The translations under genes and the position numbers were made by a program. From Promethearchaeota archaeon Loki_b32 (GTDB taxonomy: Archaea; Asgardarchaeota; Lokiarchaeia; Sigyniarchaeales; SOKP01), in NCBI GenBank assembly GCA_005223125.1, contig NJBH01000004.1, positions 96,001 through 160,000 on the forward strand: 64,000 nt of DNA, in the 5' to 3' direction. Each line of letters begins with the position of its first letter. Positions within the stretch are counted from its first letter, which is position 1. The notes beneath the pieces are model-generated. The model saw only the letters and a program-made list of their open reading frames with translations. It did no database searches and was not told the origin of the DNA. Shown piece after piece: positions 198-19,524 of the stretch.

Positions 198-791
198 TCA
201 ATTTATTGCGGAAATTAATTTATGATCATAATATTTTTTTAAAATCTGTCTCAAAATATCTTCAAAACATTCTATAATTCCTTCTCCTTTTAATGCACTA
301 GTATATCTTGAATCAATATTTTTATATTTTTGAAATCTAATTTCTTTTAAGAAATCTATAGAATTGAATTTATTTTCTAAATCTTGTTTATTAAAAGCAA
401 TAATAATCGGAAGGTTATCAATTGATTCCTTGAAGTATCCTATTAATTCATTCCAAGATATTAAATTTCTATCATATACGTCTTCATGAGAATCTATGAC
501 GAATATTACACCATCTACAGCTCTTAAGGTGATGGGGCGTGTTACAAAATAGAAGTCTTGACCTGTTGTTGTATATATATGAATTTTTAGTTTCCATTCT
601 TGATTTTGAAATGTAACCGTACCATAATCAAAAAATAAGGTTCGTTCGATGGTACTTTCGATACTACACACTTCTTCTTCTTTTCCAAATTCAGAAAATA
701 GAGCCTTTATTGATGTTGTTTTCCCTGACATAGCAGGTCCAAAATAAACAATTTTAATGCTGATGGTCTTAGCTAAATGGTCAATAATCAA
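198..791 (-). CDS. MglA/Arf-like small GTPase
   Basis: G1 GPAMSGKTT, RTLFFD switch, TTGQ (G3-like), NKQD (G4), SAL (G5). N-terminus KIVYFGP is typical of the MglA family. Confidence 0.9.
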   Translation of the reverse strand: MIIDHLAKTISIKIVYFGPAMSGKTTSIKALFSEFGKEEEVCSIESTIERTLFFDYGTVTFQNQEWKLKIHIYTTTGQDFYFVTRPITLRAVDGVIFVIDSHEDVYDRNLISWNELIGYFKESIDNLPIIIAFNKQDLENKFNSIDFLKEIRFQKYKNIDSRYTSALKGEGIIECFEDILRQILKKYYDHKLISAIN

Positions 792-1935: not shown

Positions 1936-2277
1936 TTATACCTTAAGATTTAAATCATAATATAATTTGTCGATAATAGTGTTAAATGCATTTAAGACAT
2001 TTTCGCCAGTTTTTGCCGACGTTAAATAATAGCCAAGAAAATTCCGTTCGTCCACCAAGTTTTGAATTTCAGTGTGATCCAGATTAGCTTCATTAACTAA
2101 ATCAATTTTATTCGCAAATACGACAATTGGGATATCTCCGTAGAATTTTTTAGTTTCATTATGCCAATATATTATATGTCTAAAACTCCGTTCCCCAAGT
2201 TCATTCTCTTCAAGAATATATACAATAATAGCTGCGTTGCTCTCTCTATAGAATGAAGGACGTAGAAAATCAAACTC
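1936..2277 (-). pseudogene. 5'-truncated Rab/Ras-like small GTPase (C-terminal half only)
   Basis: Hand translation: EFDFLRPSFYRESNAAIIVY...IPIVVFANKIDL...YYLTSAKTGENVLNAF. G4 and G5 are present; G1-G3 and the start are missing, and the frame is preceded by TGA at 2278-2280. Confidence 0.85.
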
Positions 2278-2640: not shown

Positions 2641-3537
2641 ATGATATCTAAAATCCTTATAATAATGTTAAACGGCGTATTATGTTATGGAAAAACATTT
2701 GTTGGAGATACTGATATTGATGACGATTTAGTTAGTGGATTTCTCACAGCAATAAGTAGCATCGCAAAAAAGATTGGTGGAGGAGAAATAAGATCATTAA
2801 ACTTCAGAAATTTTAATTTCATATATACTCGGGATGATGAAAACCTATGTATGTTTATTATAGTAACTGATATTGATGACCCTGAAGAAGAAGCAAGAGA
2901 TAAATTAGAATTACTAAAAAACGAATTTATCAACCGGTTTCATGATGATTTGAAAAACTGGGATTGTGAAACCGGAAAGTTTGAGGTTTTTGATGAATTT
3001 GTTGAAAAACGTCTTTTCATCCCGCCAAAGATATTATTAGTAGGTGAAGAAGGAGTAGGTAAATCAACAATCATGGATTTATTTCCAGGAGAAACTATTT
3101 TAGAATTGGATGACGATCTGAATGAGATTATTCAAAAACCTATCACCTTATCTAATCTTAAGAGGATAAATGAGTGTATTTTAAGGGAAATGGATTTAAA
3201 AGAATTAATTGATAATTCAAAAATTTATAGATCATTATTAGATTCAGTTGATATAATTATAATTGTTACGAATTCAGGAGCAAGTAATCTAGGGAGAACA
3301 CAAAGATTATACTCCCAATTAGAAAAGAAAGTGAAAAAAGCGAATTTTTATATAATAGCAAATTTTCAAGATCTGCCAAATACATCATATGAGCCAGAAA
3401 AAGTAGAAGAAATGTTTGGAATTCAGACTTATGGATTCTGTGCAATTAAAAGAGAAGCAAAAGAAATAATCTATGAAATAATTAGTGAAATGTTAAGAAT
3501 TTCAATCGTACAGAAAATAGTAAGTAAACAAACCTAA
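2641..3537 (+). CDS. Longin-domain / degenerate small GTPase fusion (paralog 1)
   Basis: N-terminal longin-like pattern (IIMLNGVLCYGK...DLVSGFLTAISSIAKKIGGGEIRSL). G1 GEEGVGKST, G4 variant NFQD, no DxxG. Confidence 0.8.
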   Translation: MISKILIIMLNGVLCYGKTFVGDTDIDDDLVSGFLTAISSIAKKIGGGEIRSLNFRNFNFIYTRDDENLCMFIIVTDIDDPEEEARDKLELLKNEFINRFHDDLKNWDCETGKFEVFDEFVEKRLFIPPKILLVGEEGVGKSTIMDLFPGETILELDDDLNEIIQKPITLSNLKRINECILREMDLKELIDNSKIYRSLLDSVDIIIIVTNSGASNLGRTQRLYSQLEKKVKKANFYIIANFQDLPNTSYEPEKVEEMFGIQTYGFCAIKREAKEIIYEIISEMLRISIVQKIVSKQT

Positions 3538-3658
3538 AGAGGAATTTGTGAAAATAGTAAAAACTATGTGCATGATATTCGAATTTATGAAATTGAAATG
3601 GCAAAAATTATTATTAGTGAATAAACCCTCACTAGTTAGGAAAGATTAGAAACCTGAA

Positions 3659-4558
3659 ATGATATCAAAAATATTTATTATTGCGAAGGATGGTGTTTTG
3701 TGCTATTCTAAATCATTTTTTGGTTCCGGACATAGAGATACTGAGATTGTAAACTTTCTCACTTCTATTAATCATGTTGGTAAAACCGTTGGGTTAGGGG
3801 AAATCAAATCATTAAACTTTTCAAATCTTAATATAATTTATTCCTATGATGATTATAATTGTATGTATATTATAACAGCTGATATCGATGATCCTGAAGA
3901 AGAGATAAGAGATAAATTAGAATTAATAAAAAAAGAATTTATCACAAGATATCATACACAATTAGAAAATTGGAATGGGAAAGCTAAGAAATTTAAGGAT
4001 TTTGACCGATTTACTGAAAGCCATGTTTTTATTCCACCGAAGATATTATTAGCAGGCGAAGATGGCGTCGGAAAATCAACTATCATGGGTTTATTTCCAG
4101 GCGAGACTATTTTGGAATTGGATGATGACATGAATGAAATCATTCAGAAAACAATAAATTCACCTAACTTCGAAGGAATTAGTGAATTCATATTACGAGA
4201 AGTTAATATTCAAGATTTAGTTGGCTATTCTAAAATCTACAAAATGCTTTTAGATTCAGCTGATATTATTTGCCTCGTTACTAATTCGGGAGCAGGCAAT
4301 TTAAGTAGAACAAAGCAATTATTTTTAGAGTTAAAACAGAAAACAATTAAGGCGGATTTTTACATAATTGCAAATTTTCAAGATTTAGTAAATACTTCAT
4401 TTGAACCTGAAAAAATAAACGAGTCATTTGAGATTAAAACTTTCGGCTTTTCTGCCATCCGAGCTGATGCAAAAGATATTATATATAAAGTAATCAGTAT
4501 AATATTGAAAAATTCAATCATAGATAAATTTGAGAACAAATACAACCATTTTATATAG
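3659..4558 (+). CDS. Longin-domain / degenerate small GTPase fusion (paralog 2)
   Basis: Full-length colinear paralog of 2641..3537. G1 GEDGVGKST, NFQD, SAI. Confidence 0.8.
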   Translation: MISKIFIIAKDGVLCYSKSFFGSGHRDTEIVNFLTSINHVGKTVGLGEIKSLNFSNLNIIYSYDDYNCMYIITADIDDPEEEIRDKLELIKKEFITRYHTQLENWNGKAKKFKDFDRFTESHVFIPPKILLAGEDGVGKSTIMGLFPGETILELDDDMNEIIQKTINSPNFEGISEFILREVNIQDLVGYSKIYKMLLDSADIICLVTNSGAGNLSRTKQLFLELKQKTIKADFYIIANFQDLVNTSFEPEKINESFEIKTFGFSAIRADAKDIIYKVISIILKNSIIDKFENKYNHFI

Positions 4559-4585
4559 GATTATTATAAAGAGAATTAGAGAAAA

Positions 4586-5080
4586 ATGACATTAACGGAA
4601 ATTGAAGAAGATTTTGTTTTCCCCGTATATATTTACCGAGATACTATACAAAAGATTCACCTATTAACGAAAGATTTTGAAAATGAAATTTTTGGATATC
4701 TTATTGGCAATATATTAGAATGGAAAGGACAAATATATGTTGTAATTGAGGAGATCCTTTTTATTTTAGGAGCGGTCCATAGTGATAAATTTTCGACTTC
4801 TCAAATAGAAGGTACTGCTGGAAAATACGAAAAGAGATTCCAGAGATTAAAGGAAAAAAGAGAAAATGAAAATTTAAGAATTGTAGGATGGTGGCATTCG
4901 CATCCTGGATTTGGGTGTTTTTTATCCACAACAGATTTAAAAACCCAAGAATATTTTTTCCCGGAATCATATCAAGTAGCTTTAGTAAATGATCCACATC
5001 AAGATGAGCTTAAATTTTTTACTTTAGACAAAAATTCAAAAAATGGTTATAAACCAATTAATTATGCTATTCTAACTTGA
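4586..5080 (+). CDS. MPN+/JAMM metalloprotease (Rpn11/CSN5-like deubiquitinase)
   Basis: ENEIFGYLIG and VGWWHSHPGFGCFLSTTD give a complete E...HxHx7Sx2D motif. Confidence 0.93.
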   Translation: MTLTEIEEDFVFPVYIYRDTIQKIHLLTKDFENEIFGYLIGNILEWKGQIYVVIEEILFILGAVHSDKFSTSQIEGTAGKYEKRFQRLKEKRENENLRIVGWWHSHPGFGCFLSTTDLKTQEYFFPESYQVALVNDPHQDELKFFTLDKNSKNGYKPINYAILT

Positions 5081-5108
5081 ATTTAAAATAACTCATTAAT
5101 TCGAATAA

Positions 5109-5993
5109 ATGCAAAAAGAAGAAAAAAAGAGAGAAGATGTGAAAGTCTTTGAGATTGACTCCATAGATTCCGACATTTTCGATCGGCAAAAAAGAATTTT
5201 AGGTTGGGACCAAAAGAAAATTTCAGATGCCTCAGTTATGGTGATTGGTGTAGGAGCGACAGGTAATGAAGTTGTTAAAAACTTAATTTTAACAGGAATA
5301 GGCAAATTAATTTTAATAGACTACGATTTCATAAACATCTCAAATTTAAATCGTTGTGTGCTATTTAATAGTCAGAGCGCTCAAAATAAAGATTATAAAG
5401 TCGATGTTGTGAAAAATGCGTGTGAAGAATTAAATCCTGATACAGAAGTCATAGCGATAAAAAAGGATTTAAAAGATATTGATAAAACACTCTATGAAAA
5501 ATCTGACGTCGTTTGCTCATGTTTAGACAACGTTGAAGCTAGAATAGAAGCAAATAATTATGCTTATTATAATGGGGTCCCTTTTGTGGACTCTGGGATT
5601 GAGGAATTTTTTGGGAGTATTCAATCAGTCTATTCTGGAGAAGATGATGCCGCATGCTTACAATGTAATGTTTCTAATGCAGATTTAGATTTAATGTGGA
5701 AAAAATATTCATGCACGGGGCAAGAAATTGAAGGTGAAAATGGAGAAACTATAGCAAAAATTGCAACAATCATAACCACAACCTCAATTATTGGAGGATT
5801 ACAATCACAACAAGTATTGAAATTTCTTTTAGGGATAGATTATTTTAAAGAAAAAGGTAAATGGAATCCTCATATTGGGAGCCCTTTAATTGGCAAACAA
5901 TTGAATTATAATGGTTTATTAAATAGATTTAATATAATTGAAAAATTAAAGAATCCCGATTGTTGGACTTGCTCCTATAAAAAGAAGGACTAG
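5109..5993 (+). CDS. Ubiquitin-activating enzyme E1-like (ThiF/UBA family)
   Basis: FDRQ, GVGATG nucleotide loop, DYDFINISNLNR, CLDN, CLQC and CWTC Zn motifs. Candidate catalytic Cys in KYSC. Confidence 0.92.
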   Translation: MQKEEKKREDVKVFEIDSIDSDIFDRQKRILGWDQKKISDASVMVIGVGATGNEVVKNLILTGIGKLILIDYDFINISNLNRCVLFNSQSAQNKDYKVDVVKNACEELNPDTEVIAIKKDLKDIDKTLYEKSDVVCSCLDNVEARIEANNYAYYNGVPFVDSGIEEFFGSIQSVYSGEDDAACLQCNVSNADLDLMWKKYSCTGQEIEGENGETIAKIATIITTTSIIGGLQSQQVLKFLLGIDYFKEKGKWNPHIGSPLIGKQLNYNGLLNRFNIIEKLKNPDCWTCSYKKKD

Positions 5994-6098
5994 TTTAAGT
6001 TCGAAAAGAATATAATTAATTAAACAAAAAGTAATAAATAATAAGATCATCATTTTATAAGTTAATATCTAATAAATTTAAATTAAGGGTTAATAAAA

Positions 6099-6662
6099 AT
6101 GCCTGAGCTGCCTTTTGAAATATGGAAAGATAGAATTGAAAATGAACTTAAATCTATTAAGAAATTAGAAGTATTGGATGAGAAATCATTAATTAGAGCT
6201 AATAATAGTGTAGAATTCACGATAAAATTAAATGCCTTAGGAATAATAAAAAAAGGTGAGGATTATATTCCTCAAAAGTCTCATAGAATCTTTTTGAAAA
6301 TCAATAGAGCATTTCCTTATCCTGGAGGAATAGATTTTTCATGGCTAACCAATATCTTTCACCCAAATATCCATCCTGTTGGTATTTCTTTGAATTCCCC
6401 GGGCACAGGTTATATTTGTTTAAATGTTTTAAAAAAATGGTCTAGATTATCTGATTTGGAAACTACAGTTAAAGCCTTAAAACTCTTGGTTAAAAATCCT
6501 AATCCTGATGATCCACTCAATTATCCAATTTGTTTAGAAGCAGCAGAATTCTTTAGAAAAAAAACTATGGAAGATTTTGAAAAAGATTTAGATCTTAAGG
6601 AAGTTGTTGTAGAAGAGGTTGAAGAAAATGATGATGATGATATCATTATCATCGATGATTAA
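6099..6662 (+). CDS. Ubiquitin-conjugating enzyme E2 (UBC fold)
   Basis: FPYP...IFHPNI...GYICLNVLKKW...NPNPDDPLN, followed by an acidic tail. Confidence 0.92.
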   Translation: MPELPFEIWKDRIENELKSIKKLEVLDEKSLIRANNSVEFTIKLNALGIIKKGEDYIPQKSHRIFLKINRAFPYPGGIDFSWLTNIFHPNIHPVGISLNSPGTGYICLNVLKKWSRLSDLETTVKALKLLVKNPNPDDPLNYPICLEAAEFFRKKTMEDFEKDLDLKEVVVEEVEENDDDDIIIIDD

Positions 6663-6681
6663 AAGTCATTTCTACTTATTT

Positions 6682-6957
6682 TTATAGATATCTGCCACCA
6701 ATAACTTTTGCCCATAGAATTAATTTATCATTCTCTTCTAAGCCAAATTTATGAATCGCATCAGCAACTGTTATTGTACTCGGTAGCTCTTGATCCTTAA
6801 GAACCAAAGAATAAGATCTTTGCTCCGCACTAATAATACCCATATGTTTAATAATTATATCGACTATCCGCTCAATTTGATGATGTGTTTTTACATCTAA
6901 TTTAATTAACTTTCCCGTTCTTGAATCTTCAACTGTTATTCTCACTTTTTTTCGCAC
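6682..6957 (-). CDS. Ubiquitin-like protein with C-terminal GG plus RYL pro-extension
   Basis: 91 aa with a beta-grasp-like pattern, ending GLEENDKLILWAKVIGG-RYL. Adjacent to E1/E2/JAMM. Confidence 0.85.
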   Translation of the reverse strand: MRKKVRITVEDSRTGKLIKLDVKTHHQIERIVDIIIKHMGIISAEQRSYSLVLKDQELPSTITVADAIHKFGLEENDKLILWAKVIGGRYL

Positions 6958-7491: not shown

Positions 7492-8745
7492 ATGAACGAT
7501 ACTGAAAATGATGAAATAAAAAAGTCTGCGAATTCTGAGAATCAAGAAGAAAAAAGGAAGAAACCAGAAAAGCGAGCAAGAAAGTCGCAAGGTCAAATGA
7601 TTCAAGAAGCACTTGGTTTAGGTCCGACAGATATTCAAGATGTTGAGAAGAAGCTCTTTATTGTACGCTTTTTAGATTATTTCTCTGAAGAAACTTTAGA
7701 CTTCATCTTTAAGGATAACACAATAAATCAATATACCAAACAAATTACAACTCATATGGAGGATTTTAGTACAAAGGGGGAAGAAGATATACTTTTAAAG
7801 CAAAGTTTCGAATCAAAAAGGATTTTAGAAACAGTTCATAAATTAAAAGGGAAAGCGGAAGAAATTGCCTCTAGTAAAGGGATAAAAGGGTCAATGGATA
7901 AACGTTTGCGTAGGCTTACTTTGTATCTTACAGCACCAATGTTTGCTCTGATTATAGTCTCATTCTTTTTCACACAAATAACCTACTTTATACTTCCAGT
8001 TTTGTGTGTATTTTGTATGTTGCCTCAAGTAGTTAGAGGTAGGGTTACTAAGAAATGGTTTGAATTTAAAGAGCAGAATAAAAATCAGATTTATTCTGAA
8101 TATCGAGAAGATATTATGATTTTGAAAGGTTTTACGGGAGAAACTTTAGATAATGTTAGAGCGAGGCTAATAGAACTGAAAGTACCATTACAGTTGATTA
8201 AATTTATGCTATATAGCAGAGATTATGAAAATCTAAGATTATTAAATCAAAAGAATATAAGAGGTACAAAGCAATATTTCTATACTTTTGAATACCCTCA
8301 AGGAGTAGAACCATTTCCAATACCACAGCAACTTCTACAATATCAACAACCTATAATCCCAAAGAAAGCAGAAAAATTGGAGAAAAATTTCATCGTTCTT
8401 TCTGAAATGAAAGGGAGAGATGGAGTTATCAATTATTTTGTACCGACTCTGAAAGATAAATATGCAGAGAAAATTAATGAGATGTTAAATAATTCTAAAT
8501 TTAGCAAAGCTCCAAATGATTTCGCTACTATTATGCCTAATTATTCAGAAAATATGGTGATTTATTGCGTCTGTGGTCAAGTAGTAGAAATTAACAATGT
8601 ACAAATTTGCAATTGGAAAGACCAATTCAAATTTTACCTATTTGAAGGAGAACAATGTAATTGTGAAGAAACTGTATACGCTCTTTCTTTAATGGATGAA
8701 TCTGCAGAAGTACCCGAAGAATTAAAAGATATTTTCTTAAGTTAA
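7492..8745 (+). CDS. Hypothetical membrane protein with central TM hairpin and C-terminal Cys cluster
   Basis: Hydrophobic stretch LTLYLTAPMF...VFCMLP. C-terminal CVC...C...CNC. Confidence 0.7.
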   Translation: MNDTENDEIKKSANSENQEEKRKKPEKRARKSQGQMIQEALGLGPTDIQDVEKKLFIVRFLDYFSEETLDFIFKDNTINQYTKQITTHMEDFSTKGEEDILLKQSFESKRILETVHKLKGKAEEIASSKGIKGSMDKRLRRLTLYLTAPMFALIIVSFFFTQITYFILPVLCVFCMLPQVVRGRVTKKWFEFKEQNKNQIYSEYREDIMILKGFTGETLDNVRARLIELKVPLQLIKFMLYSRDYENLRLLNQKNIRGTKQYFYTFEYPQGVEPFPIPQQLLQYQQPIIPKKAEKLEKNFIVLSEMKGRDGVINYFVPTLKDKYAEKINEMLNNSKFSKAPNDFATIMPNYSENMVIYCVCGQVVEINNVQICNWKDQFKFYLFEGEQCNCEETVYALSLMDESAEVPEELKDIFLS

Positions 8746-10900: not shown

Positions 10901-11533
10901 CTAAGTTTTAGCAAGCTCTAATTCATAAATAGGGATTTCTCTCCTCTTCTTGGCATCATATAAAGGCAATCCCGATTTTTTTAAAAATTCTGGAGTTTTA
11001 TATTTCAGAATTACAGTTTGGCAACTGCTAGAGATCTTCATACGGGCAACACGAAGCCTATCTCGTACTAATGGTAAATCTCTAAGATAAGCACCCACTT
11101 CGAGTACTATTTGTCCTGCTCGAACACGGGCACAAACTCCAGTGGATCTTCCAAATGAGTTTCTCATGCCTGATTGTACGCGATCTGCACCGGCAAATGC
11201 CAACATTCTGTTCTCTCTATATTTTTGAAATGGTTTTGGTCGTATTCGAAGTCGATAATTTTGTCTACCAAGTTTTCTTTGGAGAACACCGTTGACAGTG
11301 ATTCTAATTGCTTCAAGAGTGTTTGAAGATATCTGAATTTGAGAATTTACCTTCAAACCAACTACAAGCTCAAAGTCTTCCCAAGGTATCTCTTTAGCCC
11401 CACCCCAGAACCTTACAATCTTGCTTTGCGCGCCACCACGTGCATATTCGCGTCTGCGATTTGATGATCTTTTATATTGATAAGGTCTCCTTGACCATTT
11501 TGAATAACAATGCCATGGACGCTTATGGGCGAT
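10901..11533 (-). CDS. rpl10e: 50S ribosomal protein uL16 (L10e), apparent ATC start
   Basis: RENRMLAFAGADRVQSGMRNSFG motif. The frame extends 59 codons upstream of the ORF-track start (AHKRPWHCYSKW...REYARGG..SKI) to an ATC 6 nt after AGGTGA. Confidence 0.93.
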   Translation of the reverse strand: MAHKRPWHCYSKWSRRPYQYKRSSNRRREYARGGAQSKIVRFWGGAKEIPWEDFELVVGLKVNSQIQISSNTLEAIRITVNGVLQRKLGRQNYRLRIRPKPFQKYRENRMLAFAGADRVQSGMRNSFGRSTGVCARVRAGQIVLEVGAYLRDLPLVRDRLRVARMKISSSCQTVILKYKTPEFLKKSGLPLYDAKKRREIPIYELELAKT

Positions 11534-11738: not shown

Positions 11739-12152
11739 TTATTTTTTATTGAATTCATCTGGATTTCCACCAGATTCAAGGTGTTCTGCGTACTTTTTTA
11801 AACTTTTTAAGAGCATTTCTCCAGCGATTCCTAAAATAGTTTCTTGGTTTGCATCATCAAATTCAGTCCAGATTGTAGCTTCTATAATATCCCCCTTAGG
11901 TTTTAAAATATAACCCAAGCTTGTCATGGGGCTCCCTTCTTGAGTTGCAGCAAGACTTTCAGGTGCATTTGTTTCTATACGAGTAGACGTTATATCTCCA
12001 ACATTAGTTTTAAAAAAGTAATTACCTTCACCAAGTTTAGTAACTTCATTAACAACAATATTCCACTTGGGATAATTATCATCATCGTCAATAATTTGCC
12101 AAACTTTATCTTGAGATGCAGCAATATCGATTGTTCTTTCCAATTTTGGCAT
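11739..12152 (-). CDS. SRPBCC / polyketide cyclase-like protein
   Basis: IDIAASQDKVWQII.D...YPKW N-terminus and C-terminal LKSLKKYAE helix. Confidence 0.8.
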   Translation of the reverse strand: MPKLERTIDIAASQDKVWQIIDDDDNYPKWNIVVNEVTKLGEGNYFFKTNVGDITSTRIETNAPESLAATQEGSPMTSLGYILKPKGDIIEATIWTEFDDANQETILGIAGEMLLKSLKKYAEHLESGGNPDEFNKK

Positions 12153-12354
12153 TACTTTAACACCATTAGAATTTCTTTTATTAATAATAATAATGTGTAA
12201 AGAGATTGTTTAAAGTTATTAATAAAAGTTTTGATTTGTGTTTTTATATTCAATAACACTCAAAATTAAATAAGCTCCACATTTAAATTCTATATAGAAT
12301 AACCACATTATTCTCCTTAAACTTGATTTGAGAAATGTTTTCATCTTATAAATT

Positions 12355-13497
12355 ATGATAAATCAAGAAACCGCGTTAAGTCAAAAAACCGAATTATTGT
12401 GTAAAGGGTTGTATCTCGATAATTCTTTAATCCCCCAGTATAAAGAACAAGGAATTAACATAGATTTCGGACGAAAAGGAGGAGCAGGTCCATCTGGAGG
12501 AAGATATTTTTTATTAGAAGAAGGTTCCAGTTTAGTAAATGTTGCTCTCTGGAATACACCCAATAATAGGGAATTATTTTTAAAAGATTACAAGAATGGT
12601 TATTTTGAAGTGTTTAATGAAAAGAATAAAGAATCATTTGGAAGATTAAAGTTAATTCAAAACCCCCGATTTTATAGTCCTAATTTTAAAACTTCTGACG
12701 GAATTCCAATGAAAAAGATAGCTTTAGTACATGGAATAGACTGTCTTGCAAGTACAATATATCAAAAATGTGTTTATTGGGGATGTGGAGAGGCATGTAC
12801 CTTCTGTGGTATTGAAGTTAGTCTACAAAATGATGCAACTATATTAGAAAAGAATGCTAAACAGATGTCAGAGGTAATCACCATGGCGAAAAAAGAAGGT
12901 AGATGCTCTCACATGACACTAACAAGTGGTACAGATGAAACTGTCGACAAGGGAGCTAATCGTTATGTAAAATTATTAAAAGGAGTTAAAAGTGACCATC
13001 CAGATATTCCAATTCATGTACAAATTGAAGCCTTAGAAGATTTAATCTATATTAATAAATTAAAAGAAGCGGGAGCAGATACCATTGGGATTCATATAGA
13101 AGTTTTAGATAATACTTTAAGAAAGGAAATTACCCCAGGTAAATTCAGTATTTCCTATAATTTATTTGAAAAAAACTGGAAGCATGCGATTGATACTTTT
13201 GGCAAAAACCAAGTTAGTAGTTATGTTTTAACGGGATTTGGAGAATCTAAGGGTGAGTTCATAAAAGATATTGAAAAAGTCATCTCATTAGGAGTTATAC
13301 CGTATATAACACCAGTAAGACCTATTCCAGGTAAAAGATATTTACCTAACACCAATTTTGAAGATTTACTAGACATATATAAAGACAGTGGAAAACTGAT
13401 GAGGGTATATGGAGTTAATCCTTTAGAAAATAAAGCTGGATGTGTTCGATGCGGGGGTTGCTCAGCGATTAAAGAAGCTTACATTGAAGCGAAATAA
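12355..13497 (+). CDS. Radical SAM protein, MSMEG_0568-like family
   Basis: RKGGAGPS, LVHGIDCLASTIYQKC...CTFC (atypical CX8CX2C spacing), C-terminal AGCVRCGGCS. Confidence 0.8.
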   Translation: MINQETALSQKTELLCKGLYLDNSLIPQYKEQGINIDFGRKGGAGPSGGRYFLLEEGSSLVNVALWNTPNNRELFLKDYKNGYFEVFNEKNKESFGRLKLIQNPRFYSPNFKTSDGIPMKKIALVHGIDCLASTIYQKCVYWGCGEACTFCGIEVSLQNDATILEKNAKQMSEVITMAKKEGRCSHMTLTSGTDETVDKGANRYVKLLKGVKSDHPDIPIHVQIEALEDLIYINKLKEAGADTIGIHIEVLDNTLRKEITPGKFSISYNLFEKNWKHAIDTFGKNQVSSYVLTGFGESKGEFIKDIEKVISLGVIPYITPVRPIPGKRYLPNTNFEDLLDIYKDSGKLMRVYGVNPLENKAGCVRCGGCSAIKEAYIEAK

Positions 13498-15652: not shown

Positions 15653-17005
15653 ATGAAAACATCAAAACTAATATTATATGGTTCCATTTGCGTAGCATTA
15701 TTTGTTCTCTTTCATATGTATTCTCCCCCTATTTTTTCATCAGGTGTAAAGAGAGCAATTGACCGGTTCATTCTTGATCCTTTAGCTTACTGGTTGTTCA
15801 TATTTCCATTAATAGGATTACTCATGTTGTTAGGATTTATAATTTATTATGGAATGCATTTCTTTGCATCTTTTGGTAGTGGATATCGAGCTAAAACACC
15901 TTATTATGCTGACATAAGTATATTAATTGCGTCTAAAAATGAGAAAGTATTATTAGAAAGAACCTTGAATTCCATTGTTGACTCAGATTATCCTAAAGAA
16001 AAAATTCAATTAATTGTAATTACTAGTGGATCAACTGATGGTACAGCTGAATTTTGTAATAATTTTGCTAAAGAACATAGTACAATCGATATGAAAGTTT
16101 TATCAGAGGATCTCCCAAAAAAAGGAAAGCCTCCAGCCCTAAATTATGGTCTAAAGTACGTAAAAAATGAGATTGTTGTTCTTTATGATTCTGGTTGCAT
16201 TTTACAGAAAAACACTTTAAAAAGTCTAATAGCTCCTTTTCAAAAACCTAAAATTCATGCCGTAATTGGCCCTGTCTTGGTTAAAAATTGGAAAGATAAT
16301 AAATTGACAAGAGGAATTGTTCTTGATTATGCTATTGTATCTGGTGGTGGATTGCTTTTTGAAATTAAAAATAGATTAGGAGCATCAGCTTATTCATTTG
16401 GACGAAATTTTGCGGTTAGCACGAAATATCTTCAGAAATATGGTGGTTTTAATGAAGATTCGATGACAGAAGATCTTTATCTTTCAGTACTTTTGAGTTT
16501 GGATGGTGTACAAATATTCTTTTCTCCAAAAGCAAAGGTTTATGAATACGTCCCAAACACCTGGGAGATTTTAACAAAACAACGCACCCGGTGGTTAGCG
16601 GGATTTATTTTTGATATGCCACAATTAATGTCGATGAAAAGTGAAAATAAAAATGGGAAAACCTTAATTATCTCGAGAAATATGACCATGATGATTATAG
16701 GAAATATTGATACATGGATACCAATAGTAATTGGATTTTCAATCCTTCATTTTTTGATTGGGGAATATTATTTACTAATTTGGGATCTTGCCTGCTTATT
16801 TTTCCAAGTTGGCTTCTTGTTCAATGCCGTCCGAAAATATGGAGATAAGCATTATAGTGTTTTATTAATATTTCTAATTAGTGGTTATATCCATCTCTAT
16901 ATGTTCTTACGTCAATTTTCTCTTCCGAAAGAAATAAGTTGGGAAAAAACTCCTATGATATTAGAAAAACAAGAGATTGAAATAAAGGCTTTATCTACGG
17001 CATAA
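15653..17005 (+). CDS. Membrane GT2 glycosyltransferase (cellulose-synthase-like)
   Basis: GKPPALN, YDS (DxD-like), TED, QRTRW (QxxRW). TM helices at both ends. Confidence 0.9.
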   Translation: MKTSKLILYGSICVALFVLFHMYSPPIFSSGVKRAIDRFILDPLAYWLFIFPLIGLLMLLGFIIYYGMHFFASFGSGYRAKTPYYADISILIASKNEKVLLERTLNSIVDSDYPKEKIQLIVITSGSTDGTAEFCNNFAKEHSTIDMKVLSEDLPKKGKPPALNYGLKYVKNEIVVLYDSGCILQKNTLKSLIAPFQKPKIHAVIGPVLVKNWKDNKLTRGIVLDYAIVSGGGLLFEIKNRLGASAYSFGRNFAVSTKYLQKYGGFNEDSMTEDLYLSVLLSLDGVQIFFSPKAKVYEYVPNTWEILTKQRTRWLAGFIFDMPQLMSMKSENKNGKTLIISRNMTMMIIGNIDTWIPIVIGFSILHFLIGEYYLLIWDLACLFFQVGFLFNAVRKYGDKHYSVLLIFLISGYIHLYMFLRQFSLPKEISWEKTPMILEKQEIEIKALSTA

Positions 17006-17062
17006 CTTTTTTATATTTTAATTAATATTTTTTTATATTTAATAGTATATATACTAAAATAT

Positions 17063-18373
17063 GTGGTGAAATTGTTGTTTAAATTCCAGGATCATCTACC
17101 AACAGAATTAGAAAGAAAATATTTTGATTTTAAAGCACGAGATTACCCAGAAGAGAAATTTTGTGAGGATTTACTAACACAAATTAGTCAATCTTATAAT
17201 AATTGTAAATATTATCAAGAGAATGTATGTAAGAAGTTCGGATTTACAATTCCAGACGAATTATCAATTAAGGATTTAGAAAACATTCCTTATATACCAA
17301 CTGATATTTATAAAAAGTCAGAAAACCGAACAGTAGGACTTTTAAAAGCACCTCTTAATAAGATAGGTTTATTCTCATGTTCCTCCTCCACAACAGGAGA
17401 TCCCTCGATAGTGCCTCGAACAATAGATGATTTTGATCAATTACAATATAACTCAATTAAGGTATTTACAGAATTTTTCAGATGGAAGGATTTAAAAATT
17501 GGTCCAAAAAGATGTGTCGTTTTTAATTTTTCCCCAAATCGTAAATTTATGACAATGATGGCAAAAAGGAGAGTAAAAGGATTTGAGTACGTTAATAAAA
17601 CTCGTTATTTCACAGCATGTATGAATAAACCTTGGGAATATTATGGACATGAAGAATATATGGTAAAAATAAAATGGTTAAAGACAATTTGGGCTATAAT
17701 TTCAACCTTTTCATTAAAAGGGGGCTTTATTTTAGATGTAAGCAAAATGTTGAAAATGGTTAAAAAAATTAAAGAAACAGGGTTTTGGAAAGGAATAGAA
17801 GTAAGCAAAATTGTATTTGGCGGAAGTGCACTTCTAATGAATAATATGTTCAATAAAAGGTTATTGCAAGAAAATGTATTTTATGATCTCGAAAATATCT
17901 CTTTTGTTGGGTGTGGTGGAGGAGGATGGGATGGAGTTAAAGGTGAAGCAAAAATGGATGCTGTAGATAAAGTCAATTTTATTGAAAATTATGAAAAAGT
18001 GTTTAATATTAAACCTAAAAACATTGGAGATATTTACGCATTTACCGAAGGACCGACTCTTTTTGGGGGTCATTGGTCTGAAAAATACCAAGATTTCTTG
18101 CTACATTGTCCTAATACATCTAGGATTATCGTTAGAGATCTAGAAGATTTAAATCCTGTTAATAAAAATATGGAAGGTTTACTTGAGGTAATAACTCCTT
18201 ATGGGGTGAATGGGAGCATAAATCAAGCAGTGATTGTTGATGATATTGTGGAACTTATTTCAAAAGATAAATGTCCAGAATGTGGTTATGAAGGTGCTAC
18301 ATTTAGAGTCATAGGAAGATTAAAAAATGCTCAGGGAAAAAGTTGTTCTTCGTTAATTGATTGGCTTCACTAA
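17063..18373 (+). CDS. LuxE-family acyl-protein synthetase
   Basis: IPYIPTDIYK, SSSTTGDPS, GGGGW, DIYAFTE, GRLKNAQGKSCS with terminal Cys as in LuxE-like proteins. Confidence 0.8.
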   Translation: MVKLLFKFQDHLPTELERKYFDFKARDYPEEKFCEDLLTQISQSYNNCKYYQENVCKKFGFTIPDELSIKDLENIPYIPTDIYKKSENRTVGLLKAPLNKIGLFSCSSSTTGDPSIVPRTIDDFDQLQYNSIKVFTEFFRWKDLKIGPKRCVVFNFSPNRKFMTMMAKRRVKGFEYVNKTRYFTACMNKPWEYYGHEEYMVKIKWLKTIWAIISTFSLKGGFILDVSKMLKMVKKIKETGFWKGIEVSKIVFGGSALLMNNMFNKRLLQENVFYDLENISFVGCGGGGWDGVKGEAKMDAVDKVNFIENYEKVFNIKPKNIGDIYAFTEGPTLFGGHWSEKYQDFLLHCPNTSRIIVRDLEDLNPVNKNMEGLLEVITPYGVNGSINQAVIVDDIVELISKDKCPECGYEGATFRVIGRLKNAQGKSCSSLIDWLH

Positions 18374-18408
18374 TTTTTTTAAATTAAATGGTATTATTAC
18401 TACCCTAT

Positions 18409-19524
18409 TTAATAGTCTTTATTCACCATTTTTTTTTCATCTTTAGTTAATTCCCGTACAGCTCTGGCAGGAGAACCAAACGCAATCGAAAATGGGGGAA
18501 TATCTTCGCTTACTAATGAATTTGCTCCAATTATCGATCCCTCTCCGATTGTAACTCCTGGTAAAACAACAGAATATGCACCTATTCTCGCATTTTTACC
18601 TATTTTAATAGGTCCAAAACTGAAACTTCCATGCTGTATATTCATTGCATTATGAGTTAATAATTTTACACCAATACCACAACCACTACCATCTTCAAAT
18701 TCAATTAATTCAGGTAAGAGAGGATCAGGTATTGCCTTCTGTGAAATATGGCAATTATTACCGATTTTCATTCCAGTAAACCGAAATAATACATTTCTTG
18801 CTCGTGGCCACCCTGTTAAATATGTAATTATTAATGATATTAAGTGATTAAAAGCACCTCTTACAAACCAAGATACAGAATAACCTTTAGACTGAAGATA
18901 TTGTGCAATAATTAACATTGGTACAGGAGTGAAGATATGTTCATCAGTGTCTATATTAATATTAGTTATTTTACCCTTAACTTCAATTTCAAATTCTGGT
19001 CTTCTCTTTTTCCATATTTTTCTAGCTTTAATCAAATCCTTAAAAAAAATAAGAAAATCAGTACTCACTAAAAATAAGAATAACCCTAATGCAAATATTA
19101 TTGGTAAAAAGAGTATAAGAAACATTAACCTTGTATTAAGAGTTATTTCTTGATTGAATATAATACTAAAATAAGCATAATGACTTGCTATAAATGTAAC
19201 TAATACAAATCCACATAAACTAAAGACATATATTATGGAACCTGTCATATGTTTTACTTTTGCTAAATTATATCCAAAAACATATAATACAAGAAAAAGC
19301 GCATAGCAAATAAAAATCCCAGCATAGACAAATATAGTATAATTATAAAATAACAATAATAACCATGGTCTTAACAAATTGTAAATGAAATCCATCCATG
19401 GAATCGATAGAAAAATCTGATTAAATATTAATAATACTATAAATAATGCGCTTAAAATTAAGAAAATAAATGAAAAAATGAATCCCTTCGTCCAAAATTT
19501 CATTTTACCTGAGACTTTAGACAT
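18409..19524 (-). CDS. Membrane-anchored hexapeptide-repeat (LbH) acyltransferase
   Basis: About 4 N-terminal TM helices. GMKIG, LLTH, IKIGKNARIGAYSVVLPGVTIGEGSIIGANSLV...GSPA. Confidence 0.88.
   Translation of the reverse strand: MSKVSGKMKFWTKGFIFSFIFLILSALFIVLLIFNQIFLSIPWMDFIYNLLRPWLLLLFYNYTIFVYAGIFICYALFLVLYVFGYNLAKVKHMTGSIIYVFSLCGFVLVTFIASHYAYFSIIFNQEITLNTRLMFLILFLPIIFALGLFLFLVSTDFLIFFKDLIKARKIWKKRRPEFEIEVKGKITNINIDTDEHIFTPVPMLIIAQYLQSKGYSVSWFVRGAFNHLISLIITYLTGWPRARNVLFRFTGMKIGNNCHISQKAIPDPLLPELIEFEDGSGCGIGVKLLTHNAMNIQHGSFSFGPIKIGKNARIGAYSVVLPGVTIGEGSIIGANSLVSEDIPPFSIAFGSPARAVRELTKDEKKMVNKDY

Follow-up and report, generated by a model that had tools for sequence, protein, structure and literature searches.

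A divergent ubiquitin-like cassette linked to switch-degenerate longin-GTPase genes in Lokiarchaeia

Why should genes for proteins that resemble trafficking GTPases stand in line with the genes of a ubiquitin-like conjugation pathway? The question is raised by a locus of Promethearchaeota archaeon Loki_b32, a 4.13-Mb metagenome-assembled genome of the Lokiarchaeia (Promethearchaeota) from marine sediment. Within a stretch of 64,000 nucleotides of its contig NJBH01000004.1 (hereafter the window), two longin-GTPase genes (LG_A and LG_B; LG for both) are followed by genes for a JAMM metalloprotease, an E1 and an E2, and face the gene of a ubiquitin-like modifier (Ubl; Table 1). The original prediction, made from the letters of this stretch, saw here a dedicated and possibly E3-independent pathway with the longin-GTPases as its substrates or regulators, and a candidate ancestral link between ubiquitin-like tagging and GTPase signalling. 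The comparative analysis described here supports a functional tie between the longin-GTPases and the ubiquitin-type genes, whereas the proposals of signalling, E3 independence and ancestry are either not supported or weakened by it.

Conservation of the cassette and its predicted conjugation enzymes

The five co-oriented genes LG_A, LG_B, JAMM, E1 and E2 are separated by 121, 27, 28 and 105 nt, exactly as first described from their open reading frames (ORFs), and the junction between E2 and Ubl is convergent and spans 19 nt. A synteny survey in relatives had been set beforehand as a check on the linkage. For this survey, the window proteins were searched against 20 kb of sequence surrounding the top LG homologue in each related genome, and LG, JAMM, E1, E2 and a convergent Ubl were found in the same arrangement in 20 of the 25 genus genomes examined (the window genome and 19 others). 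In a second family (f4), which belongs to the same taxonomic order and whose LG is 35-39% identical, LG, JAMM and E1 are adjacent, and clear E2 and Ubl orthologues are located elsewhere in the genomes; a metagenomic lineage that is only 44% identical carries the same cassette with gaps of 5-30 nt, the one between LG and JAMM being 5 nt. LG lies immediately upstream of JAMM in all of these cases, namely the 20 genus genomes, f4 and the 44%-identical lineage, and LG-JAMM-E1 is the most persistent core of the cassette. Because the arrangement of LG, JAMM, E1, E2 and Ubl is found again in about 25 genomes, it is far beyond what chance would produce.

The genes are also inherited together. In four genomes of the genus (79-100% complete) the cassette-type LG, E1 and Ubl are jointly absent while two other E1 types are kept, and the cassette is thus lost as a unit. 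The ratio of nonsynonymous to synonymous substitution rates relative to the nearest relative is 0.05-0.13 over all six genes (Ubl 0.05, LG_A 0.11, LG_B 0.13), which indicates that each of them is under purifying selection. Synteny, joint presence and absence, and purifying selection together provide strong comparative evidence that LG belongs functionally to JAMM, E1, E2 and Ubl.

The four conjugation genes retain the features expected of active components. The JAMM protein reaches 45.6 bits against Pfam JAB, its best Protein Data Bank (PDB) matches are Rpn11 (3e-10), the Rpn11-like protein of Caldiarchaeum and CSN5, and its E...HxHx7SxxD motif (E34, H104, H106, S114 and D117) is invariant in 21 orthologues; judged by this motif, it probably matures the pro-Ubl and may deconjugate Ubl as well. 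The E1, with 294 amino acids (aa), has no detectable ubiquitin-fold domain. In the PDB it is closest to the active adenylation domains of Uba1 (2e-23) and Uba6, and its invariant features comprise GxGxxG, a zinc tetrad (C183, C186, C285 and C288) and Cys202 within SCTG, so that both a predicted nucleotide motif and a putative catalytic cysteine are present. The E2 scores 43.6 bits against a UQ_con cut-off of 27 and finds its best PDB matches among eukaryotic UBCs. It has a loop insertion. Across 18 orthologues HPNIHP and GTGYIC are invariant, and an acidic, Ile-rich tail at residues ~165-187 (e.g. EEE..DD-IIII-DD) is kept in every one of them; this tail is similar to a motif of the SUMO-interaction type and could be a docking element for Ubl or the longin groove.

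The modifier itself is the most conserved gene of the cassette, with 58-93% identity to the window copy among cassette orthologues and 49% for a paralogue in locus L037. It is too divergent for the Pfam ubiquitin model; its profile aligns end to end with ubiquitin (residues 6-77), the E-values of single copies being weak (0.05-0.4). In 20 orthologues an invariant VIGG precedes variable tails of 0-6 residues, which is the signature of a processed modifier and agrees with a predicted beta-grasp-type protein that ends in Gly-Gly and bears a removable tail. Since the catalytic motifs of JAMM, E1, E2 and Ubl are intact and invariant, these genes would be expected to form a working cascade.

The longin-Arf proteins and their degenerate G domains

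As the longin and GTPase matches of LG_A in Pfam are sub-threshold, its structure was predicted with AlphaFold2. A single-sequence run gave a predicted local distance difference test (pLDDT) score of 34; the model used was built with an alignment of 53 homologues (pLDDT 88.8, predicted template-modelling score 0.86), and it upholds the longin-GTPase architecture that had been proposed. The N-terminal part (residues 1-125) matches the longin folds of VAMP7 (4afi_B, Z 14.2, 117 residues aligned with a root-mean-square deviation of 2.6; 2vx8_A, Z 14.1) and Sec22 (3egd_C, Z 14.1), and the C-terminal part (residues 126-296) matches Arf1 (Z 17), which the LG family profile also matches at 2e-28. In the model, a SNARE-type longin domain thus precedes an Arf-like G domain. 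An inspection by eye only saw no Arg in the first beta-hairpin loop of the LG longin, where longins of the GAP type (folliculin-like) would have one.

The Rag/Gtr heterodimers and MglA-MglB likewise combine a G domain with a platform of the roadblock/longin superfamily, and the tandem LG proteins could pair like RagA and RagC. In Rag/Gtr proteins, however, the G domain is followed by a C-terminal roadblock domain, whereas the order is reversed in LG, its longin is of the SNARE type (VAMP7, Sec22), and the LG pair is a recent duplication that is represented by a single copy in most relatives. A Rag-like reading of LG was rejected on the basis of this domain order, with the longin first, and of the profile matches to Arf; no Pfam match to Gtr1_RagA was found either.

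The wider LG family is small, with 347 representatives in 1.84 billion proteins, and its motifs are canonical (GxxGVGKT, the switch-I PT, WDxAGQE and NKQD). In the proteins linked to the cassette, the P-loop and the N..D of G4 are preserved. Their switch-I Thr is lost and a five-residue insertion stands in its place, the DxxGQ of G3 has become D-L-K-E-L, with the Gly and the catalytic Gln gone, and the NKQD of G4 has become NFQD (NMQD in f4). Functional switch motifs (G2 Thr, G3 DxxGQ, G4 NKxD) are absent from all 34 members of the cassette clade, whereas 10 unlinked paralogues are canonical and retain WDxAGQ and NKQD. A maximum-likelihood tree separates those 10 paralogues from the 34 degenerate sequences, which group in a single clade (support 100/99). 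Because the switch-I Thr and DxxGQ are lost and NKQD is changed, the cassette LG proteins are probably nucleotide-binding, switch-dead pseudo-GTPases and not signalling switches, and the suggestion that the locus couples tagging to GTPase signalling is undercut by the loss of the first two motifs. The same tree places the duplication behind the LG_A/LG_B pair inside the genus; copy number varies from one to three, with a single copy in many relatives and three in some, and the pair is a recent elaboration.

Further variation is seen among the relatives. In eight related species the cassette LG is a fusion of ~870-880 aa (shortened to 355 or 791 aa in three of the loci) in which longin and pseudo-GTPase are followed by TPR repeats and a nitrilase-superfamily domain with an intact Glu-Lys-Cys triad; the best PADLOC match of this nitrilase is to reverse-transcriptase-associated nitrilases (9e-15), and it also matches Drt1a. 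In two other species the cassette is accompanied by G-domain-only proteins of ~340-370 aa that are devoid of the longin and carry a degenerate G domain at the N-terminus and a C-terminal extension of ~180 aa of no known type. Varying copy number, fusions and longin loss fit an adaptor or effector better than they fit an invariable substrate. TPR-nitrilase proteins also occur as a standalone, Promethearchaeota-specific family, and extra Ubl copies were observed in one of the two loci with G-domain-only proteins.

Ligase candidates, neighbouring genes and other ubiquitin sets

The absence of a RING E3 gene from the cluster was confirmed, since neither such a gene nor a RING-like tail was found on the window contig. 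There is likewise no ESCRT linkage, as the matches to Snf7 and EAP30 lie solely on other contigs (C64 and C54). A search for HECT domains gave no match, but its control was also silent and the result is uninformative. Most relatives have, 0.1-1.5 kb from the cassette, a gene for a protein of 300-350 aa with 5-7 predicted membrane helices, usually directly upstream of Ubl and co-oriented with it. This multi-transmembrane (multi-TM) protein ends in a C4C4 finger (CxxC-x10-12-CxxC-x4-CxxC-x10-CWxC), whose matches to RING families are sub-threshold (zf-C3HC4_3 at 1.8e-4 to 1.7e-2, zf-RING_2 at 4e-3, Prok-RING_1 at 8e-3) and whose profile matches RNF113, RNF4, TRIM37 and Mdm2 at E-values of at least 0.002. 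The protein is likely a ligase of the relatives' cassette, although the sub-threshold RING matches make it a candidate and not a proven one. The window genome itself has four paralogous RING-like tails elsewhere, among them those of a 12-TM MFS-like protein (contig C2) and a TPR protein (C45). With such tails beside Ubl in most relatives and four paralogues in the window genome, independence of an E3 is not established. In one related genome, two proteins of ~900 aa are encoded 2-8 kb from a cassette; they combine FG-GAP/integrin-like repeats with a membrane anchor and with a C4-type RING-like tail like that of the multi-TM protein.

Another protein, TM417, was considered as a replacement ligase for its position and its Cys cluster. 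It has 417 aa, adjoins Ubl, has two membrane helices and a conserved C-terminal CxC-x13-C-x15-CxC cluster, and matched no known family. TM417 is single-copy in 49 of 54 genus genomes; some of these have no cassette, and where there is a cassette the gene is mostly located away from it. It was therefore rejected as a core gene unlinked to the cassette.

The region upstream of LG_A adds to the picture. A broken Rab-like GTPase had been noted there, and a tblastn search bore this out: the query was the Rab-like gene, intact and 190 aa long, that stands ahead of LG in relatives, and its residues 70-175 matched with 61% identity (E 7e-42). Almost every related locus has an intact orthologue of this gene no more than 20 kb from the cassette, and the window genome has five intact Rab-like paralogues elsewhere while the locus keeps only the remnant. 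Since relatives add a Rab-like GTPase and a membrane RING-like gene, both lost from this locus, the window holds a reduced version of a larger cassette that comprises a Rab-like GTPase, LG, JAMM, E1, E2, Ubl and a membrane RING-like protein. Further upstream, Pfam recognises a small GTPase of the Ras/Arf type, and the PCI-like protein that had been named beside it has a weak Pfam match (E 0.025). The cassette is flanked by housekeeping genes (uL16, a coenzyme A-binding ACS-like gene and NifU), and its position is stable among near relatives. On contig C39 of the window genome, we also observed a Rab-like GTPase that shares 67% identity with the one associated with the cassette, together with two proteins of 347-349 aa whose GTPase domains are C-terminal and a paralogue of the 7-TM domain of the cassette that has 236 aa and no RING.

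Of 68 genomes sampled from one family (f1), 33, from four genera, encode an orthologue of the cassette E1 with at least 63% identity; f4 has orthologues that are ~50% identical, and a sample of ~230 other Asgard genomes yielded none. The window genome has two further E1/E2 sets. The set on contig C44 has three ubiquitin genes recognised by Pfam (111 aa, 140 aa, and 262 aa with a C-terminal ubiquitin domain), an E1 of 411 aa, an E2 at 92 bits and a JAB protein of 275 aa, and it scores far above the window cassette against the Pfam ubiquitin and UQ_con families. It is then adjoined by an unannotated protein of 396 aa and a double winged helix-turn-helix regulator. In the set on contig C30, the E2 is divided between two ORFs that overlap, one of 61 aa (UQ_con positions 15-55) and one of 136 aa (positions 51-139), which could reflect a frameshift, a sequencing error or a pseudogene. 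By these comparisons the cassette is a third, divergent, accessory and lineage-specific E1/E2 set that is derived and not ancestral, since it is restricted to two families of one order. Against the proposed ancestral link stand an E1 confined to f1 and f4 among the genomes sampled, an LG pair that was duplicated inside the genus, and the two other E1/E2 sets.

Table 1. Genes of the cassette and features discussed in the text (plain positions refer to the window; prefixed positions refer to the named locus or contig)
Feature	Position	Strand	Description
LG_A	2641..3537	+	longin (residues 1-125) and switch-degenerate Arf-like G domain (126-296)
LG_B	3659..4558	+	LG_A paralogue, 61% identity, same degenerate motifs
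JAMM	4586..5080	+	Rpn11/CSN5-like JAMM/MPN+ metalloprotease; Pfam JAB 7e-12
E1	5109..5993	+	compact ThiF-type, 294 aa; Pfam ThiF 6e-48
E2	6099..6662	+	HPN...Cys107, loop insertion, acidic and Ile-rich tail; UQ_con 3e-11
pro-Ubl	6682..6957	-	91-aa product, C-terminus VIGG then RYL
Rab-like remnant	1960..2277	-	without residues 1-69, thus no P-loop and no switch I
Small GTPase	198..791		Ras/Arf type
TM417	7492..8745	+	core gene unlinked to the cassette
LG-TPR-nitrilase fusion	L042:9668-12310; also L040, L044, L045, L061
Shortened LG-TPR-nitrilase fusions	L041, L043, L046		355 or 791 aa
LG-TPR-nitrilase copies	L062, L063		not linked to cassette
G-domain-only proteins	L071:3369-3872; L072:1831-2289, 12016-12510		without longin
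FG-GAP proteins with RING-like tail	L061:13358-16063, 16329-18998	-	2-8 kb from cassette
C39 gene group	C39:30436-35771		Rab-like GTPase and neighbours
C44 set	L059:5771-11138		ubiquitin genes, E1, E2, JAB
C30 split E2	L060:10900-11085, 11039-11449		overlapping ORFs

Possible roles of the cassette

Gene content, folds, motifs, synteny, co-occurrence and purifying selection are shown by the analysis, and from them we infer the biochemical steps, the role of LG and the membrane location that follow. The reading we favour, with moderate confidence, is a working Ubl cascade in which LG serves as a static longin-platform adaptor or scaffold, likely at a membrane site set by its Rab-like and RING-like neighbours. 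JAMM would trim the RYL tail off the pro-Ubl, E1 would adenylate the exposed Gly-Gly and load Ubl onto Cys202, and E2 would receive it on Cys107 and hand it to the amino groups of targets. LG_A and LG_B would be fixed, non-enzymatic subunits of this cascade; since the nucleotide pocket (P-loop and NxxD) is kept and the residues for gamma-phosphate sensing and hydrolysis are lost, a static adaptor or scaffold is their most likely role, with the longin platform placing or gating JAMM, E1 and E2 at a site defined by the Rab-like GTPase and the membrane protein. In the relatives, the multi-pass membrane protein with the RING-like tail would be the likely ligase; in the window genome, the paralogues of that tail elsewhere could supply the ligase function, or E2 could transfer Ubl directly. 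A joint fold of JAMM, E2 and LG returned a score of 0.00, which gives no verdict and is evidence neither way.

Several points weigh against the adaptor reading. The RING-like call stays below threshold in every library searched, and both the membrane RING gene and the Rab gene are missing at the window locus, so that the membrane part of the model rests on the relatives. Nucleotide binding by the degenerate G domain is an assumption, part of the degenerate LG clade sits away from any ubiquitin genes, and the support for the reading consists wholly of sequence, fold and comparative data. A bolder version, in which the switch-dead LG is itself the substrate-selecting or ligase-like part of a RING-independent Ubl branch at membranes, strikes us as improbable. 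Here LG would hold its nucleotide permanently, dock on the Rab-like GTPase or the membrane protein and present targets to E2; a non-protein amine could be among these targets, comparable to Atg8 lipidation, and the thioester-forming nitrilase that is fused to LG in some relatives could be the transfer catalyst.

Other explanations of the linkage have to be set against the adaptor reading. The longin-GTPases could be dedicated substrates of the pathway or be regulated by the tag, with E2 transferring Ubl directly and without an E3. The tight gene linkage, the lack of a RING gene at this locus and a conserved E2 tail that could dock on a partner all agree with this, as does the fact that longins bind peptides and that the top fold matches of LG are longin-peptide complexes; but most relatives have the RING-like membrane protein in their cassette, and LG occurs in one to three copies, is fused to TPR-nitrilase or loses its longin in some species, and we regard a substrate role as unlikely. 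Alternatively, the LG genes might only be neighbours of the ubiquitin genes, or part of the same transcript, and have no function in common with them. Their link is one of gene order and co-inheritance, and some adjacency is expected where each Asgard genome has dozens of small-GTPase and longin genes (LG family matches number 10-21 per genus genome and 6-21 over all 41 genomes searched). An adjacency that is held down to 35-44% identity, the common loss of LG, E1 and Ubl, and a linkage that coincides with one LG clade bearing its own motif changes nevertheless make mere co-location very improbable.

Two more explanations bear on what the conjugation genes do. An antiviral or conflict system, similar to the bacterial Bil, Bub and cyclic-oligonucleotide-based antiphage signalling system (CBASS) Cap2/Cap3 operons, with LG as sensor or adaptor and the fused nitrilase as effector in some species, would fit the patchy distribution of the cassette (33 of 68 family genomes; absent from 4 of 25 in the genus), its variable accessory content and the PADLOC matches of the nitrilase with its intact triad. 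Those operons likewise group E1, E2, a JAB protease and a Ubl, and they too are accessory and patchy. The enzymes of the cassette, however, resemble eukaryote-type proteins rather than bacterial ones; its E1 and E2 are separate proteins of that type, and between its E1 and that of Bub there is no more than a distant similarity (4e-07). None of the PADLOC models recognises E2, Ubl or LG, and the matches of E1 (1e-16, to E1-E2 models) and JAB (3e-06) are generic. A highly conserved Ubl, strong purifying selection on all genes and housekeeping flanks in a stable position among near relatives also speak against defence, which we consider a doubtful function for this locus. The least probable reading, to which we give hardly any weight, takes E1 and Ubl for a sulfur-carrier pair of the SAMP/Urm1/MoaD type that tags no proteins. 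The E1 is indeed small and MoeB/ThiF-like, with NCBIfam matches to ThiF, MoeB and SAMP E1, but all of these fall far under the family cut-offs, an E2 with a catalytic Cys and a JAMM are fixed in the cassette, a separate MoeB-type gene lies on the same contig, and the Ubl profile aligns with ubiquitin.

Asgard ubiquitin clusters have been published (Hatano 2022, PMC9192718; Makarova 2024, PMC10936438; bioRxiv 10.1101/2023.07.25.550441), as have Arf-related GTPases of Asgard archaea that carry a longin or another extra domain at the N-terminus (Zhu 2025, PMC11914678; Liu 2020, bioRxiv 10.1101/2020.10.19.343400). With the archaeal ubiquitin operons, which include the Asgard clusters and that of Caldiarchaeum subterraneum (ubiquitin, E1, E2, small RING and Rpn11-like protein), the window cassette shares a pro-Ubl with Gly-Gly and a tail, a ThiF-type E1, an HPN/Cys E2 and an Rpn11-like JAMM. 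It differs from them in that it has no small soluble RING and no ESCRT linkage (the latter being frequent there but not obligatory), is led by longin-pseudoGTPase genes, has an E1 of only 294 aa and a Ubl below Pfam detection, and is the third set in its genome; the candidate ligase of its relatives, moreover, is a multi-pass membrane protein. LG has the same longin plus Arf-like G domain architecture as the Asgard longin-Arf fusions and belongs to the same wider family, whereas the cassette clade is switch-degenerate and genomically bound to a Ubl system; no mention of this switch loss or of the Ubl linkage was found in the literature searched. Nor was a published description found of the conserved longin-Arf/ubiquitin linkage, the switch-dead clade or the membrane RING-like partner. 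The nearest published arrangement found is a Hodarchaeial cluster of ubiquitin and UEV-Vps23 with Yip1 and a Rab-like GTPase.

In summary, Asgard ubiquitin systems and small GTPases have each been used to argue for eukaryote-like cell biology before eukaryotes, and this cassette offers a clean natural case in which a trafficking-type module is tied to a Ubl cascade by gene order and co-inheritance. The cassette should not be taken for an ancestral state, since its GTPase is switch-dead and the link itself is a derived one, specific to this lineage. Its six small soluble proteins make up a compact system for reconstitution in vitro, which would show how a pseudo-GTPase serves conjugation and whether the E2 works here without a RING.

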